Part shown: positions 278 to 11,480 of the stretch, in pieces
Numbering within the stretch: position 1 is the first letter of the stretch
Layout of the letters: each line of letters opens with the position of its first letter
Virus genome (UHGV): UHGV-0185895
Length of the DNA stretch: 13,887 bases
Reading direction: 5' to 3' (one strand)
DNA from: a virus
The notes under the pieces: generated by a model
The model's database searches: none
Told to the model about the DNA's origin: nothing
Seen by the model: only the letters and a program-made list of their open reading frames with translations
Made by a program: the position numbers and the translations under genes

Positions 278-952
278 TTAATTTTTTATTCTATATCTTC
301 TTGGTTTTCCTGAAAAAATCACGGTTCCAATGATTGAGCAATTACCGTTGATTTTTATATAGGGTTCAGGCCAGTTCGAATTAAGAGCTTTTAAATAACG
401 GTTACCGGCATCTTCAATCAGGCGCTTAAATGTTGTTTCTCCAGAGTCGTGCATCAAAGCGATAACATCATCGCCATGGACTGCGGGGACCTCAGGGTCA
501 ACAAAAATCATATCACCAGGGCGATACTCATCGATCATGGAGTCGCCAATTACTCGAAGGATGTATGTCATCGGGCCACAAGGGACAGGACAGGGATAGT
601 TTTCCGTACTATTCAAATCTACCTCAGCATAACCAACTTCGGTCCATGCTCCTGCCTGTACCCAGGATATAACCGGAACCATCGTGATATTTCTATTTGT
701 ATCGGAGACATCAGGGGCCTTTGCCACGTTTGTGGTTTGGTGTTCTTGATCTAACCACCCAGTTGGCAAGTCGAAACATTTTTCAATGTGCCTTGCCATA
801 GCATCGCCGATGTTTTTTGTCGCGCCGTCCCCCATGAACCGGCTTGTTTGAGTAGGCTCGCGATCAATCATATTGGCAAAAAAAGTATTTCCACCAACAC
901 CATCTCTCAACTTTCTGGCGTTTAAACGCCTGATTTCCTGGATTGTTTTCAT
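278..952 (-). CDS. cI: CI-like prophage repressor (N-terminal HTH, C-terminal S24/LexA-type autopeptidase domain)
   Basis: 224-aa ORF; C-terminal domain has the Ser motif VIGDSM and a downstream Lys (TTFKRL), plus a candidate Ala-Gly autocleavage site (WVQAGAW); divergent from cro across an operator-rich intergenic region; no SD upstream of the ATG, consistent with a leaderless message. Confidence 0.88.
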   Translation of the reverse strand: MKTIQEIRRLNARKLRDGVGGNTFFANMIDREPTQTSRFMGDGATKNIGDAMARHIEKCFDLPTGWLDQEHQTTNVAKAPDVSDTNRNITMVPVISWVQAGAWTEVGYAEVDLNSTENYPCPVPCGPMTYILRVIGDSMIDEYRPGDMIFVDPEVPAVHGDDVIALMHDSGETTFKRLIEDAGNRYLKALNSNWPEPYIKINGNCSIIGTVIFSGKPRRYRIKN

Positions 953-3780: not shown

Positions 3781-4034
3781 AATCGCAGGTTATATCACTA
3801 ACCCCTGAACAACTGCGCCGCCAGGCTGAAGACATGCTCAAACGTGCCGAACAACTGGAAAAGACGGGGGCCACAAAGGACGCGCTTAAAAAAGCGCTGG
3901 TACCGGCGTTGCGTGAACTGATGCAGGCCAAACATCGCGCACAGCTGGCAGTTGATGAGCTGGTTGATAGTGTTGCAGATCTGGAAGGCCGAGTGTCTCA
4001 TGTCGAGAAAGTAGTGCAGGAGGTGCTGGCGTGA
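3777..4034 (+). CDS. Hypothetical small, predicted coiled-coil protein
   Basis: 85 aa; ATGA overlap with the upstream stop and GTGA overlap with the downstream start; charged heptad-like sequence. Confidence 0.55.
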   Translation: MKSQVISLTPEQLRRQAEDMLKRAEQLEKTGATKDALKKALVPALRELMQAKHRAQLAVDELVDSVADLEGRVSHVEKVVQEVLA

Positions 4035-4927
4035 CGAATGCATATTGTGAATCGCTGGCGGCCATGCGCGCTGCACCGTCCCATTTTCTGAAAGACGTTG
4101 GTGATCAGTGGCGCACGCCTGATCTGCTGTTCTGGGGCGTTAACGCAATGTTTGGACCGCTGGTACTGGACCTGTTTGCTGACGATAGCAACGCAAAATG
4201 CCCGGTATGGTTCACCGCCGAAGACAACGCGCTGACGCAAGATTGGTCCGCTCGTCTGGAAGAACTTGGCGGCGCTGGCTTTGGCAACCCACCGTATAGC
4301 CGCTCCCAGTACCACGAAAAGCAGGCGATAACTGGCATGACGCACATCATGAATTACGCGTCAGCGCAGCGTGAGAAGGGCGGGCGCTATGTATTTCTCA
4401 TCAAAGCAGCACCGAGCGAAACATGGTGGCCAGAAGATGCCGATCACATCATGTTTATTCGTGGTCGTATTGGATTCGACCTCCCGGCGTGGTTTGTCCC
4501 TGCTGATGATAAGCAAAAGCCCACCAGCGCGTTTTTTGCGGGCGCCATTGCCGTGTTTGATAAGGCCTGGCGCGGGGAGCGGTTCGGCTATATCCACCGT
4601 GCGGATCTGGAAAGGAAAGGGCAAGCGTTCATGATGCTGGCGCAGTTTGCTGTTGGCAATACTCCAGCACAGGTAATGTCGCAGCCGGCGGCAGTAGAAC
4701 CACTCGCAACGCCTACGCAATTACCAGAGACGGAATCGCGTATTTGGCCACTGGAGGTAGGGCTTGTGTTTCGACAGGTAGAAGGATCCGAAGGACTGGA
4801 GCCGTCCCAGCAAAACAAGCTGATGGCGCAAATTAACCAGCTGTGGCTGGAGCGTATGCCCACCAGCGAGATCATCACTGTTGCTGGTGGACTGGTAGAA
4901 AGCATGCAGGGGGTGAGCCATGCGTGA
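4031..4927 (+). CDS. Phage-type DNA N6-adenine methyltransferase with a C-terminal extension of roughly 100 aa
   Basis: 298 aa; catalytic NPPY motif (GFGNPPYS); N-terminal region (WRTPDLLF...LDLFADDSNAKC) resembles phage Dam-family methyltransferases; the C-terminal third has no motif I recognise. Confidence 0.8.
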   Translation: MTNAYCESLAAMRAAPSHFLKDVGDQWRTPDLLFWGVNAMFGPLVLDLFADDSNAKCPVWFTAEDNALTQDWSARLEELGGAGFGNPPYSRSQYHEKQAITGMTHIMNYASAQREKGGRYVFLIKAAPSETWWPEDADHIMFIRGRIGFDLPAWFVPADDKQKPTSAFFAGAIAVFDKAWRGERFGYIHRADLERKGQAFMMLAQFAVGNTPAQVMSQPAAVEPLATPTQLPETESRIWPLEVGLVFRQVEGSEGLEPSQQNKLMAQINQLWLERMPTSEIITVAGGLVESMQGVSHA

Positions 4928-6770
4928 GCTGATTGTTGATAATTTTGCTGGCGGTGGTGGGGCATCTACCGGGATAGAAATGGCGATCGGCCGCAGCGTT
5001 GATATTGCCATTAACCACGACGAAAACGCCGTGGCCATGCACCGGACGAATCACCCGGACACGCTTCATTATTGTGAAAACGTCTTTGACGTTGACCCTG
5101 TCGCTGCGACAGGTGGAAAGGCTGTCTGGTTTGCATGGTTCAGCCCGGATTGTACCCACTATTCAAAGGCGCGCGGCAGTAAACCGGTAAAACGTGAGAT
5201 TCGTGGGCTGGCTTGGGTATCTGTTCGCTGGGCATTGGATGTTCGCCCTCGTGTAATGGCTCTCGAAAATGTTGAAGAATTTAAAACGTGGGGCCCGCTG
5301 CTTTCATGTGAGATGCGTCCTGATCCTAAGCGTTCTGGTGAAACCTTCCTGGCATTTGTTGGAATGCTTTCCACTGGTATACCTGCGGATCACCCGGCTC
5401 TGTACGAATGTTGCGAATTTCTCGGCATATCCTCGGATGGCAAACAAGCCAAACGACTGATTGCTGGCCTCGGGTATAAGGTCGAATATCGCGAACTGCG
5501 TGCCAGTGATTATGGTGCTCCGACGATCCGCAAGCGATTCTTCATGTTGATGCGTTGTGACGATAAACCCATTGCCTGGCCGGGAGTCACTCACGGTGAC
5601 CCTAAATCCGCAGCAGTTAAATCCGGAAATTTGGCACCATGGCGGACAGCTGCTGAGTGTATCGACTGGTCTATTCCTGCACCATCGATATTTGACCGTA
5701 AAAAGCCGCTGGCCATTAACACGTTGAAACGGATAGCGCGCGGCATCCAGCGGTTTGTCGTCGAAAGTGATAATCCGTTCATCGTCAAATGCAACCACAC
5801 CACAACACGCGGTAAATATGATTGCTTCCGCGGACAGTCGCTGGCCGATCCCCTGCAAACCATCACCAAAACCCACGGTTATGCGCTGGCGTTACCGACG
5901 TTGGTTCCATTCCTGGCAGGTAATGGGGGTAGCGAGTACCAGGCGAAACCGCGGCCATTGAATAAACCCGCTCATACCATCCTTAAACAGTCTCGCTCCT
6001 GCCTGGTTGCGCCAGTTATCGCGCGTCAGTTCGGCGCCAGCATCGGCCACCGGGCGGATGAACCCAGCGCAACAATTACCGCTGGCGGCGGGGGGAAGTC
6101 ACAGCTTGTCGCGGCCACACTTATTCAGATGGGGTATGGCGAACGTGTAGGGCAGTCGCCGCGCGTTCTAAATCTGCGTAAACCGCTGGGAACAGTTGTA
6201 GCTGGTGGCAATAAATTTGCCGTAACAACTGCGTTTTTGGCGAAACACTACGGCGGGAACTATACCGGCCCGGGCGTCGGACTGGACGATCCTGCACACT
6301 CAGTTACCACAGTCGATCACCATGCGCTGGTTACGTCTCATCTGGTTAAACTGCGCGGTACCTGCCGCGATGGCCAGCGCACCAGTGAACCAATGCCGAC
6401 AATCACCGCTGGAGGTCAGCATGTTGGAGAGGTTCGCGCGCTGCTGGCGGCTAATGATTACGACGAGCGCCGGGCGGATCAGGTCAAAGAGTTCCTGAAT
6501 TCTTTTGGCGTCAGCGAACTGGTGACGATTAAGGGTATTGTTTACCGCATTGTTGATATCGGAATGCGCATGCTGCAGCCGCATGAACTTTACCGCGCTC
6601 AGGGATTCCCTGACTGGTACATCATTGATCGTGACTACCGCGGCAAGAGGTACTCGAAAGAGAAACAAGTCGCCAGGTGCGGAAACGCCGTGCCGCCGCC
6701 CTTTGCTGAGGCGATTGTAAGAGCAAACCTTCCTGAAATTTGTGTTTCTGGTCGGCGTGAGGTTGCATGA
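4920..6770 (+). CDS. DNA cytosine-5 methyltransferase-like protein with a long repeat-containing variable region
   Basis: 616 aa; motif I FAGGGG, motif VI ENV, motif IX-like RMLQPHELYRAQGFPDWY and motif X GNAV are present in canonical order, but motif IV reads FSPDCTHYS rather than PCQ; ATG overlaps the upstream stop (ATGCGTGA). Confidence 0.8.
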   Translation: MRELIVDNFAGGGGASTGIEMAIGRSVDIAINHDENAVAMHRTNHPDTLHYCENVFDVDPVAATGGKAVWFAWFSPDCTHYSKARGSKPVKREIRGLAWVSVRWALDVRPRVMALENVEEFKTWGPLLSCEMRPDPKRSGETFLAFVGMLSTGIPADHPALYECCEFLGISSDGKQAKRLIAGLGYKVEYRELRASDYGAPTIRKRFFMLMRCDDKPIAWPGVTHGDPKSAAVKSGNLAPWRTAAECIDWSIPAPSIFDRKKPLAINTLKRIARGIQRFVVESDNPFIVKCNHTTTRGKYDCFRGQSLADPLQTITKTHGYALALPTLVPFLAGNGGSEYQAKPRPLNKPAHTILKQSRSCLVAPVIARQFGASIGHRADEPSATITAGGGGKSQLVAATLIQMGYGERVGQSPRVLNLRKPLGTVVAGGNKFAVTTAFLAKHYGGNYTGPGVGLDDPAHSVTTVDHHALVTSHLVKLRGTCRDGQRTSEPMPTITAGGQHVGEVRALLAANDYDERRADQVKEFLNSFGVSELVTIKGIVYRIVDIGMRMLQPHELYRAQGFPDWYIIDRDYRGKRYSKEKQVARCGNAVPPPFAEAIVRANLPEICVSGRREVA

Positions 6771-7828
6771 GAGCGTTACTCACCCCTGAGATTGTGCCAC
6801 GCCTCGGCGTGGTTCTATTTAAGCCCGGCCGTGATCTGATGCACCTGTTTTCTGCCGGGCGTGTTTTAGTCGAGGCTGAACCACAAAATATGGCCCGCTT
6901 GCCATCTGGTCGTGTCCCTGATGCCCGACAACCTTTAGCGGAGGATTCCAGCCTGCACGTATTCTTTTCCGATGAGCGTGTGATTCGTGCTGCTGGTGGA
7001 TTGCCAGCGCTTGAACGGTGGCTGTTTCTCCGGCTGAAGAGGTGCCAGTACCCTCATTCCGAGTACCACCATAACGAGATGGTAACGATGCGACATCCGC
7101 CTGGTGCGTTGCTGGTGTGCTGGCATTGTGACAATAAACTGCGGGAGCAGTCGACTCCAGCTATCGAGGCGCTGGCACTTCGTAATGTAGTCGACTGGGT
7201 AATAGATACTGTGCTGATCGGGCTCGGTTATAACAAAGAACGCTCTCTTTCAATCGCAGAGTTGTGCTGGTGGGCAGTTCAGTCAGGTATAGCCGATGCC
7301 ATTACGGAGACGATGGCGCAGCGTGGTCTAGGGTTGCCTGAAGAGCCGTTCCTGTCGGTGTATAAAGAAAGCGATATCCGGCCTACTTTACCGGCCACCA
7401 GCATTCTGCAGGAGAAACTGCCAGCTGCAGGCACAGCAAGGCAATGCAGGCGCAACGAAAATGTCCAGGCGCACCAGGACCAGCCGAAGGGGCTTGCGCT
7501 GACTGCCGATCCGGAATCGCCGGAATCTTTCATGCTCAGGCCAAAGCGCCGTCGCTGGGTAAGCAAGACTTATACCGACTGGGTTAAGCATCAACCATGC
7601 GAATGCTGCCGCAGACCAGCTGACGATCCGCATCATGTCATCGGCCATGGCATGGGCGGTACCGCAACCAAAGCCCACGATCTCTTCGTGTTTCCTCTGT
7701 GCAGAGAGTGCCACGACGAGCTACATGCCGATGTTAACGCCTTTGAAGAGAAGAATGGCACGCAGTTGGAGCTGCTGTTCCGTTTTCTTGATCGAGCTAT
7801 GGCGATCGGCGCAATTATAAAAGCATAG
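6767..7828 (+). CDS. DUF968-like prophage protein (YdfU-like) with a C-terminal Cys/His cluster
   Basis: 353 aa; C-terminal HQPCECCRRPADDPHHVIGHG...PLCRECHDELH cluster typical of DUF968; ATGA overlap with the methyltransferase stop; lies directly upstream of the Q-like gene, as ydfU does relative to quuQ in E. coli Qin (recalled, not searched). Confidence 0.75.
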   Translation: MRALLTPEIVPRLGVVLFKPGRDLMHLFSAGRVLVEAEPQNMARLPSGRVPDARQPLAEDSSLHVFFSDERVIRAAGGLPALERWLFLRLKRCQYPHSEYHHNEMVTMRHPPGALLVCWHCDNKLREQSTPAIEALALRNVVDWVIDTVLIGLGYNKERSLSIAELCWWAVQSGIADAITETMAQRGLGLPEEPFLSVYKESDIRPTLPATSILQEKLPAAGTARQCRRNENVQAHQDQPKGLALTADPESPESFMLRPKRRRWVSKTYTDWVKHQPCECCRRPADDPHHVIGHGMGGTATKAHDLFVFPLCRECHDELHADVNAFEEKNGTQLELLFRFLDRAMAIGAIIKA

Positions 7829-8776: not shown

Positions 8777-8953
8777 GTGAAGCAAAGCGAGTTCAGGCGT
8801 TGGCTTGCAGCTCAAGGGGCAGAGTTTAAAGATGGTACCAACCACTTAAAAATTTACCTCAACGGCAAGCAAACGATAATGCCGAGACACCCGGGCAAGG
8901 AAATCCCGGAGCCGCTGAGAAAAGCAATTTTGAAGCAACTCGGTATCAAATAA
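8777..8953 (+). CDS. hicA: HicA-family toxin (mRNA interferase)
   Basis: 58 aa from the GTG at 8777 with AGGAGGAGG RBS; MKQSEFRRWL...HLK...MPRHPGKEIPEPLRKAILKQLGIK closely resembles HicA as recalled; below the 60-aa cut-off of the ORF track. Confidence 0.8.
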   Translation: MKQSEFRRWLAAQGAEFKDGTNHLKIYLNGKQTIMPRHPGKEIPEPLRKAILKQLGIK

Positions 8954-9000
8954 AAACCAGCCCTCCGGGGCTGGTACTCGTGGAGATTCACTTAATCAAT

Positions 9001-9408
9001 ATGAGATATCCGGTAAATTTTGAGCATGACGAAACCGGCTGGGCGGTATTTTTCCCAGATATCCCCGAGGCAATGACGGGAGGGGCAACCAGGGAGGAAG
9101 CGTTAGAAATGGCGCAGGATGCCCTGGTTACGGCGTTTGATTTCTATTTTGACGACCGCCGGGAGATCCCCGCACCTTCAGCAGAGGGTGAGGCGTTTGT
9201 TGAAGTGCCATCAAGCGTGGCGGCGAAGGTATTATTGCTAAACCGCCTGGTCAGTACCAATACCAGTAACGCTGAACTGGCCCGCATGATTAATACGCGC
9301 CCTCAGGAGGTACAGCGAATCGTGTCTCTTGGTCATAGCACCAAGATCGACACCATTCAAAAAGCACTATCGGTACTAGGACAAAAAATGGAAATAATTG
9401 TCCGGTAA
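9001..9408 (+). CDS. hicB: HicB-family antitoxin (N-terminal HicB fold, C-terminal DNA-binding domain)
   Basis: 135 aa from the ATG at 9001 (MRYPV...); DIPEA, TAFDFYF and VAAKVLLLN segments match E. coli HicB as recalled; lies downstream of hicA in the usual order. Confidence 0.8.
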   Translation: MRYPVNFEHDETGWAVFFPDIPEAMTGGATREEALEMAQDALVTAFDFYFDDRREIPAPSAEGEAFVEVPSSVAAKVLLLNRLVSTNTSNAELARMINTRPQEVQRIVSLGHSTKIDTIQKALSVLGQKMEIIVR

Positions 9409-10843: not shown

Positions 10844-11029
10844 ATGACCTTAGCCCAGTGCATTAAAATGCAGGAAGATGCAATATGTAACAAGGATGTG
10901 GAGGTTATAGATCTGAGAATGATTAATATCTGGGGACAGCGGCAAGCACCATGTGATAGCAAGCCGCTGATGGGGGAGCCGCACTCAGAAACCACAGTAG
11001 TATTTCTACCGGCATGGCTTAACTATTAA
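10844..11029 (+). CDS. Questionable small ORF (61 aa), AT-rich, convergent with the protease gene
   Basis: GAGGA 5 nt upstream of the ATG; 3' end overlaps the protease gene 3' end by 11 nt; no recognisable motif. Confidence 0.3.
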   Translation: MTLAQCIKMQEDAICNKDVEVIDLRMINIWGQRQAPCDSKPLMGEPHSETTVVFLPAWLNY

Positions 11030-11480
11030 ACAACAACTCGAATTTGTTATTTTTGTAGTCAAGCGTGAATGAGCAGTGTTGAAGAAACTCCATCCCAAGA
11101 ATTGCTTTGAAGTGTCGCCCATTATTAACTAAAGGGGTTGCATGAAATTCTTGAGAAAAAAGGCGCCCGTCGTTTGTTAGGCTCATAACCGCCCTGCGAG
11201 CTGTTGAATTAATTGTAGAAGTTCCTCCCCGAACTTGGATTTCGCTGGTAACTGGGAGTTCTAATTCATCAGCAAAATCATTATCGATATAACAGGCGGT
11301 AGCACCAGTATCGATCAGAACCATAGCTGATTCATGTTTCTCGGGGTTCGGTATTTGATAATGATTATCTTTGTCAACCGCTGCAAATGTGACAACTATC
11401 ACGGGTACAGCCATTGGTTGCGGTGTAGTTGAAAATTCCCCGCTGCTGTTCATAAAGTACACTGGTAAATTAATTGCCAT
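11019..11480 (-). CDS. Retropepsin-like aspartic protease (single-domain, presumably active as a homodimer)
   Basis: 153 aa; active-site signature LIDTGAT (D57-T58-G59-A60), Gly-rich flap VRGGTS and C-terminal ILGMEFL motif; opposite strand to all neighbours; sampled 60-nt stretches give roughly 35-45% GC against about 60% near the terminase genes. Confidence 0.7.
   Translation of the reverse strand: MAINLPVYFMNSSGEFSTTPQPMAVPVIVVTFAAVDKDNHYQIPNPEKHESAMVLIDTGATACYIDNDFADELELPVTSEIQVRGGTSTINSTARRAVMSLTNDGRLFSQEFHATPLVNNGRHFKAILGMEFLQHCSFTLDYKNNKFELLFNS

Follow-up and report, generated by a model that had tools for sequence, protein, structure and literature searches.

The 13,887-nucleotide (nt) stretch analysed here, UHGV virus genome UHGV-0185895 (hereafter the window), carries on its plus strand, at positions 4920-6770, an open reading frame (ORF) of 616 amino acids (aa) that encodes an intact cytosine-5 (C5) DNA methyltransferase. 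Six tandem units of 32-40 aa each separate its motifs VIII and IX and together occupy aa 309-520 (nt 5844-6479). Judging from sequence comparison, the protein is probably, although we hold this with reserve, a solitary phage C5-methyltransferase in whose variable region six small recognition modules, directed at several targets, stand in tandem. Arrays of recognition domains within one methylase are already known as an anti-restriction device, and the regular array of six units would be a variant of it.

The repeat array and its delimitation

The repeats were first pointed out in a sequence-only reading of this DNA, which described about seven copies between motifs VIII and IX and quoted seven peptide strings and two DNA strings as examples. 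The peptide strings are found exactly at the noted positions, the two DNA strings occur at 6072 and 6399, and the placement is correct, with motif VIII at aa 204, the units at aa 309-520 and motif IX at aa 550. Self-alignment, which had been proposed as a check, bears out the significance of the repetition: the best off-diagonal local alignment within aa 255-520 scores 93 versus 30.7±4.2 (maximum 43) in 100 shuffles, and the top ten scores sum to 643 versus 241±26 for shuffles. Likewise, when units of 150 diverse representatives, which share 42-77% identity with the window protein, were the sole input to a hidden Markov model (HMM; here the leave-out HMM), this model detected six units at 15-43 bits, whereas the best domain among 500 shuffles of the protein reaches 5.9 bits. 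The units, each with its type letter and its scores under the unit HMM and the leave-out HMM, and the helix that follows them are:

aa 309-347, 5844-5960, plus strand: unit 1, type F, ADPLQTITKTHGYALALPTLVPFLAGNGGSEYQAKPRPL (unit HMM 41.3 bits; leave-out 15.3 bits)
aa 348-379, 5961-6056, plus strand: unit 2, type E, NKPAHTILKQSRSCLVAPVIARQFGASIGHRA (unit HMM 35.3 bits; leave-out 22.9 bits)
aa 380-419, 6057-6176, plus strand: unit 3, type B, DEPSATITAGGGGKSQLVAATLIQMGYGERVGQSPRVLNL (unit HMM 46.8 bits; leave-out 36.5 bits)
aa 420-455, 6177-6284, plus strand: unit 4, type C, RKPLGTVVAGGNKFAVTTAFLAKHYGGNYTGPGVGL (unit HMM 48.2 bits; leave-out 37.5 bits)
aa 456-488, 6285-6383, plus strand: unit 5, type A, DDPAHSVTTVDHHALVTSHLVKLRGTCRDGQRT (unit HMM 51.0 bits; leave-out 43.3 bits)
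aa 489-520, 6384-6479, plus strand: unit 6, type D, SEPMPTITAGGQHVGEVRALLAANDYDERRAD (unit HMM 39.4 bits; leave-out 24.9 bits)
aa 516-528, 6465-6503, plus strand: helix (AlphaFold2 secondary structure, family consensus and unit orders)

The count of about seven therefore stands for the six units scored by the HMM but not for the proposed copy at aa 261-281 (KKPLAINTLKRIARGIQRFVV, 5700-5762, plus strand). The pairwise scores of this segment, 14-20, are at the level of chance (shuffled null 17.4±3.9), and the unit HMMs return no match to it. It is instead a conserved helix of the core (H266-281), in which R271 and G275 are invariant and the predicted local distance difference test (pLDDT) score is ~92.

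The repetition had also been said to be visible in the DNA, which holds for the quoted strings but otherwise barely so, as it amounts to a single 44-nt pair at 70% identity (6045-6088 / 6372-6415). With only this one weak pair, the duplications are old, and recent slippage or phase variation is ruled out. The strongest self-alignment offset, 108-109 aa, equals three units (E-B versus A-D; aa 348-520, 5961-6479) and points to an old duplication of a block of several units.

The catalytic core

The ORF matches Pfam PF00145 (C-5 cytosine DNA methylase) with an E value of 4.5e-21 and 76 bits (cut-off 22), the match being split into three by the intervening repeat array; under the NCBIfam TIGR00675 'dcm' model it obtains 56 bits, which is under the cut-off of 100.65. 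The motifs occur in canonical order, namely I (FAGGGG, aa 9), IV (PDC, aa 76), VI (ENV, aa 116), VIII (RKR, aa 204), IX (RMLQPHE, aa 550) and X (GNAV, aa 588), and the catalytic motif residues are invariant over 110 homologues. The C5-methyltransferase fold of the predicted model matches 3g7u, DNMT1 and M.HaeIII in a Foldseek search of the PDB, which returned the catalytic fold only. Sequence searches of solved structures aligned the region of motifs IX-X to DNMT1, 3g7u, M.HaeIII and M.HhaI, sequence and profile searches of these structures yielded alignment to motifs I, VIII, IX and X only, and no structure of a multispecific C5-methyltransferase turned up in them. The earlier identification of a C5-methyltransferase in a lambdoid phage is thus upheld by the PF00145 match, the motifs and the gene order (see below), the enzyme being intact and the element a prophage. 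The parts of the protein outside the array are:

4920-6770, plus strand: C5-methyltransferase ORF, 616 aa (ORF list, Pfam PF00145, motifs, fold matches)
4920-5843, plus strand: N-terminal catalytic core with motifs I-VIII, and a family-specific conserved segment at aa 209-308 (pLDDT, conserved columns)
6555-6728, plus strand: motifs IX and X (DIGMRMLQPHEL ... CGNAVPP), with the catalytic domain's C-terminal helix (pLDDT 85-96)

Anatomy of the unit and its relation to the TL element

Each unit is built on the frame P-x-x-T-[IV]-T ... V...L ... G, arranged around a loop that differs by unit type. Across 1,044 units from the 150 representatives, P3 is conserved in 100%, T6 in 95% and G31 in 91%, while [VI]7, T8, V17, L21 and G26 are conserved in 63-80% (V17 in 69% and L21 in 70%). 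Positions 10-15, which follow T-[VI]-T-A, carry 0.9-1.7 bits overall but 2.8-3.4 bits within a unit type. This core had been likened to the target-recognition core of monospecific C5-methyltransferases, for which a TL consensus with a role in recognition has been published, (YFW)X(RK)X5P(STCA)PT(ILV)(TASV)X5-16H(PFYWL) (PMC2413257). A relaxed form of the core, P..[TS][ILV][TASVL], is present in all six units and nowhere else in the protein, with 0.31 occurrences expected, and the narrower P..T[ILV][TASV] is present in four of the six versus 0.11 expected.

The position of the element can be compared as well. The T250-L251 recognition loop of M.HhaI is 22 residues ahead of R272, and the Thr of the usual last unit of the family lies 24 residues ahead of the motif IX arginine. 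When motifs IX-X together with the two last units of the family served as a profile-profile query, hhalign aligned them to the C-terminal region of four enzymes, SPR, rho11s, H2 and SPbeta (probability 91.9%, E 7e-7), laying the columns EP.HT..TKDR.GLV, a last-unit head that the window protein itself does not have, over EPAFTVNTIDRHGVA, a segment conserved ahead of motif IX in these four enzymes. All four reportedly methylate GGCC. Additionally, the other units are significant paralogues of the last unit under the unit HMM.

Copy number and mosaicism across the family

An exhaustive search at E<1e-30 delimits a family of 2,502 clusters (50% identity), with protein lengths from ~470 to >1,100 aa, and a translated search of a phage collection returned 350 phage records, including phages of Gordonia, Mycobacterium, Pseudomonas, Arthrobacter, Vibrio, Aeromonas, Klebsiella, Burkholderia and Bacillus. 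The homologues carry 2-12 units, which at 50% identity form 226 types occurring in mosaic orders; type B is found in 159 of 270 homologues. Proteins 72-92% identical to that of the window differ from it by indels of one or two repeat periods, and their unit orders are FEBCAD (74 proteins, the window's included), IFEBCAAD (24), IFEBCAD (10) and, more rarely, FEBCAAD (6), IFEBCNAD (3) and FEBNAD (2). In diverse members the middle units are mosaic and combined in almost every possible way, and a Rhodobacterales clade shows like variation, with 3-10 units.

Two further observations concern the architecture and genomic distribution of the family. The chromosome of Paracoccus sp. ME4 holds four different copies (L010, L013, L038 and L047) of 7-9 units each, presumably on four prophages. 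In four proteins of 1,000-1,100 aa (P0127, P0176, P0201 and P0235), the methylase occupies the C-terminal half and is preceded by N-terminal fusions.

Experimentally tested relatives

Activity in the family has been addressed in two groups of temperate phage enzymes. The protein ARM81mr_p29 of Aeromonas phage phiARM81mr is 50.7% identical to the window protein over 623 columns (BLASTP) and has 5 HMM-detected units, one of which is 74% identical to window unit A; Pyei1_p05 of a Paracoccus phage is 41.3% identical over 702 columns (BLASTP) and has 8 HMM-detected units, one of which is 71% identical to window unit C. Both share the core and the repeat unit with the window protein and are encoded in the early/replication region of temperate phages, whereas the number and set of their units differ from those of the window protein, which misses the usual last-unit head. 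PMC5537653 describes ARM81mr_p29 as a 5-methylcytosine (m5C) methylase relaxed in specificity. According to PMC6536676, Pyei1_p05 is ~69% identical to JCM7686_0772 and JCM7686_2655 of Paracoccus, for which it serves here as a proxy in identity and unit comparisons; the Paracoccus aminophilus genes were not returned by a genome scan with the Paracoccus phage protein.

When cloned in Escherichia coli (E. coli), JCM7686_0772 and JCM7686_2655 confer partial protection at many sites (PMC3925955, Additional file 8). The protected sites include those of AluI (AGCT), BsuRI (GGCC), HpaII/MspI (CCGG), EcoRII (CCWGG), NciI (CCSGG), Hin6I (GCGC) and TaiI (ACGT), as well as those of PvuII, XhoI, BglI and others (PMC3925955), whereas CGCG, GATC, GGNNCC, CCGCTC, ACGCGT and CCATGG receive zero protection (PMC3925955, Additional file 8). 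With broad protection and some sites left unprotected, the Paracoccus enzymes are therefore selective but broad. Such behavior would be expected from several short specificities, and degenerate recognition would also be compatible with it. In the parts available, PMC3925955, PMC5537653 and PMC6536676 leave internal repeats unmentioned and do not tie the relaxed behavior to a recognition-domain array; a search of the literature likewise found neither a description of the repeat array nor a paper linking relaxed specificity to such an array.

Alternative explanations

Several observations speak against an array of recognition modules with several targets. The likeness to the TL element fails at the level of the full published consensus (PMC2413257), which fits none of the six units, and the unit HMM, run against the classical recognition domains of five Bacillus enzymes, finds only short cores at no more than 4.5 bits, which is not significant. 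The relatives tested for methylation are at most 51% identical to the window protein, and the partial protection conferred by the Paracoccus enzymes fits degenerate recognition equally. The within-type conservation of positions 10-15 is partly circular, since the columns that measure it also served to define the types. The order of units is partly fixed, with B always ahead of C and H-G nearly always last. Furthermore, the window protein and its enterobacterial relatives are without the head of unit G; the helix at aa 516-528 takes the place where most family members have this last-unit head (EPlHTvTTKDRfGLV), so that the unit nearest motif IX differs in type from that of most of the family. 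Lastly, structure prediction of the variable region, another of the checks proposed at the outset, succeeded for the core but not for the array. AlphaFold2 models were made for the window protein with 110 homologues and for a short four-unit homologue with 60; pLDDT in the window protein is mostly >90 up to ~aa 290, and the repeat array has a pLDDT of 28-59 in both modelled members, in which the core is confident. The low values may mean that the units are ordered only on DNA, or may equally be an alignment artefact arising from variable unit numbers.

The fixed position of B before C and the terminal H-G would also fit a single composite DNA-binding domain made of diverged repeats, with loose or degenerate recognition, in which copy number tunes affinity or reach. 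We regard this explanation as somewhat unlikely, although it agrees with the partial, many-site and 'relaxed' protection described for the tested relatives in PMC3925955 (Additional file 8) and PMC5537653, and with the indels of the 72-92%-identical homologues, which are often out of phase with the delimited units (tail plus head), as in a periodic structure. Against it, the m5C-sensitive sites CGCG, GATC, GGNNCC, CCGCTC and CCATGG are unprotected, hence recognition is selective (PMC3925955, Additional file 8). Nor would one composite domain account easily for loops that are strongly conserved within a type across ~50%-identical proteins and differ between types, or for middle units that are combined almost at will.

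The low confidence of the models across the array bears on two other explanations. The specificity could be single and be supplied by the one unit beside the catalytic core, the rest being relics (pseudo-domains) or spacer whose gain and loss are neutral. Lange et al. are said to have described, in 1991, inactive 'pseudo' recognition domains in Bacillus phage methylases, and the AlphaFold2 models show no ordered structure in the array. A single specificity is nevertheless improbable. The most constant frame residues are 91-100% conserved over >1,000 units, whereas relics would decay; unit types persist across ~50%-identical proteins; the DNA copies are old and diverged, yet the reading frames are all intact; and the tested relatives act at many sites (PMC3925955). 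Alternatively, the repeats could serve another role: they might bind a partner from the host or the phage, keep the enzyme attached to DNA under replication, or provide a decoy against methylation-dependent defence. The low-confidence and possibly flexible array leaves room for such roles, as do the N-terminal fusions in homologues of 900-1,100 aa, but the units sit exactly where recognition domains do, they carry the TL core, and they are paralogues of the element matched to the pre-motif-IX segment of the Bacillus phage enzymes, all of which makes such a role highly improbable. A reading modelled on TALE proteins, in which every unit would read one base of a long site, was also considered and is unlikely, as the tested relatives act on many short sites.

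An array of recognition modules with several targets is thus the explanation that we retain. A stronger version of it, that the ~35-aa units are autonomous and portable mini recognition domains forming a natural combinatorial library of >200 types (at 50% identity), with up to 12 per enzyme and reshuffled by recombination in steps of one repeat period, is put forward only tentatively.

A possible mode of action

The putatively active enzyme would be produced early in the lytic phase, from the replication-to-Q segment and alongside a Dam-type methylase. If the units are recognition modules, each module would comprise a fixed strand (P-x-x-T-[IV]-T), a type-specific loop, a second strand (V-x-x-x-L) and a glycine-rich linker, and the modules would be paralogues of the single TL element that ordinary C5-methyltransferases have just before motif IX. 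The units may alternate, singly or in pairs, in presenting DNA to one catalytic pocket. Methylation in several short sequence contexts could protect phage DNA against many restriction enzymes simultaneously, and the target repertoire would change as recombination inserted, deleted or exchanged single repeat periods. That one unit corresponds to one specificity is plausible, and we infer both the alternate docking of units and the anti-restriction role.

Genomic setting

The window corresponds to the early-right and late part of a lambdoid (lambda-like) prophage, with the gene order cI, cII, Ant, O, Dam, C5-methyltransferase, DUF968, Q, lysis genes and Nu1. The features surrounding the methyltransferase are:

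278-952, minus strand: cI-like S24 repressor
after the cI-like repressor in the gene order: YdaS/Cro-like ORF and cII-like ORF
between the cII-like ORF and the Dam-family ORF: Ant/Rha antirepressor, then O-like replication protein
4031-4927, plus strand: Dam-family N6-adenine methyltransferase (Pfam PF05869, E 2.1e-41)
6767-7828, plus strand: DUF968 / HNH-like ORF (Pfam PF06147, E 6.8e-69; HNHc_6 match weak)
downstream of the DUF968 ORF, ahead of HicA/HicB: antiterminator Q
8777-8953, plus strand: HicA toxin, between antiterminator Q and holin
8980-9408, plus strand: HicB-like antitoxin, between antiterminator Q and holin
11019-11480, minus strand: retropepsin-like aspartyl protease ORF, between the lysis genes and terminase Nu1
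downstream end of the gene order: holin, lysozyme, DUF2514 and terminase Nu1

The C5-methyltransferase ORF starts at an ATG preceded by a Shine-Dalgarno-like run, GGGGGTGAG. Its 5' end overlaps the upstream Dam-family ORF by 8 nt, and the phage therefore has two methylases in one early operon; at the other end, its stop overlaps the start of the DUF968 ORF via ATGA. The position in an early operon with overlapping frames counts in favor of a phage methylase made early. Other features of this region deserve mention in their own right. The Pfam domain of the Dam-family ORF spans aa 17-199 only, and its final ~100 aa are without a family match; a nuclease-like DUF968/HNH gene adjoins the two methylases in the early operon; and the retropepsin-like ORF looks like an inserted accessory gene.

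The element is most similar to Klebsiella and Raoultella prophages. A protein identical to the window methylase is recorded in a Caudoviricetes metagenome assembly, and among its named relatives the nearest, at 85-92% identity, come from genomes of Klebsiella and Raoultella. At the DNA level, the phage collection held no near-identical sequence, and the E. coli collection gave a 72%-identical partial match in two genomes and nothing closer.

Implications

If the repeats work like the Bacillus arrays, the device would be very widespread, as the 2,502 clusters at 50% identity indicate, and would extend to phages of enterobacteria, Vibrio, Aeromonas, Pseudomonas, Burkholderia, Rhodobacterales, Mycobacterium, Gordonia and others. 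The array would be far more modular than the Bacillus examples, and such a mode of action would explain the 'relaxed specificity' reported for some members. Knowledge of the units could then help to predict which restriction systems a temperate phage evades, a matter of interest for phage therapy and for the prophages of Klebsiella and Salmonella, and the units could provide small natural modules for engineering the specificity of cytosine methylation. Should the units moreover prove autonomous, no methyltransferase would be known to read DNA sequence in a more modular way, the units would supply a parts list for programming cytosine methylation, and the strategy of arrayed target-recognition domains would extend beyond a few Bacillus phages to the temperate phages of Proteobacteria and Actinobacteria. 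The family is also a good system for asking how a single pocket can serve many recognition elements.

Comparison with known methyltransferases

The monospecific enzymes M.HhaI and M.HaeIII have the catalytic fold and motifs in common with the window protein, and their TL element lies ~22-24 residues before motif IX, like the usual last unit of the family. In M.HhaI the T-[IL] pair is followed by a glycine-rich loop (TLSAYGGG). Whereas the monospecific enzymes have one such element, the window protein has six, and whereas theirs conforms to the complete TL consensus, including aromatic and basic residues upstream, the window units are without these.

The closest parallel in design is provided by the enzymes of Bacillus temperate phages (M.SPRI, M.Phi3TI, M.Rho11sI, M.H2I and M.SPBetaI). 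That tandem recognition modules underlie multispecificity in these phages, the premise of the sequence-only reading, is accepted, and a 2025 review credits recognition-domain arrays, as the basis of multispecificity, to Bacillus temperate phages only (PMC12707154). The Bacillus enzymes are likewise solitary and have one catalytic core; several elements, each with a T-[ILV] core, stand end to end between motifs VIII and IX; and relatives differ from one another through gain, loss and exchange of elements. The two groups differ in that the Bacillus enzymes have 2-4 elements, whereas the window protein has 6 units and its family 2-12. Classical Bacillus phage recognition domains measure ~38-54 aa; the window units are shorter (32-40 aa) and more regular, with an obligatory P at position -3 and a linker rich in G, unlike the Bacillus phage elements. 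Additionally, the window family occurs in phages of Proteobacteria and Actinobacteria, and its catalytic core is distant from that of the Bacillus phage enzymes. Taken together, sequence comparison makes the resemblance in design to the Bacillus phage arrays clear and lends support to homology of the family's usual terminal element.

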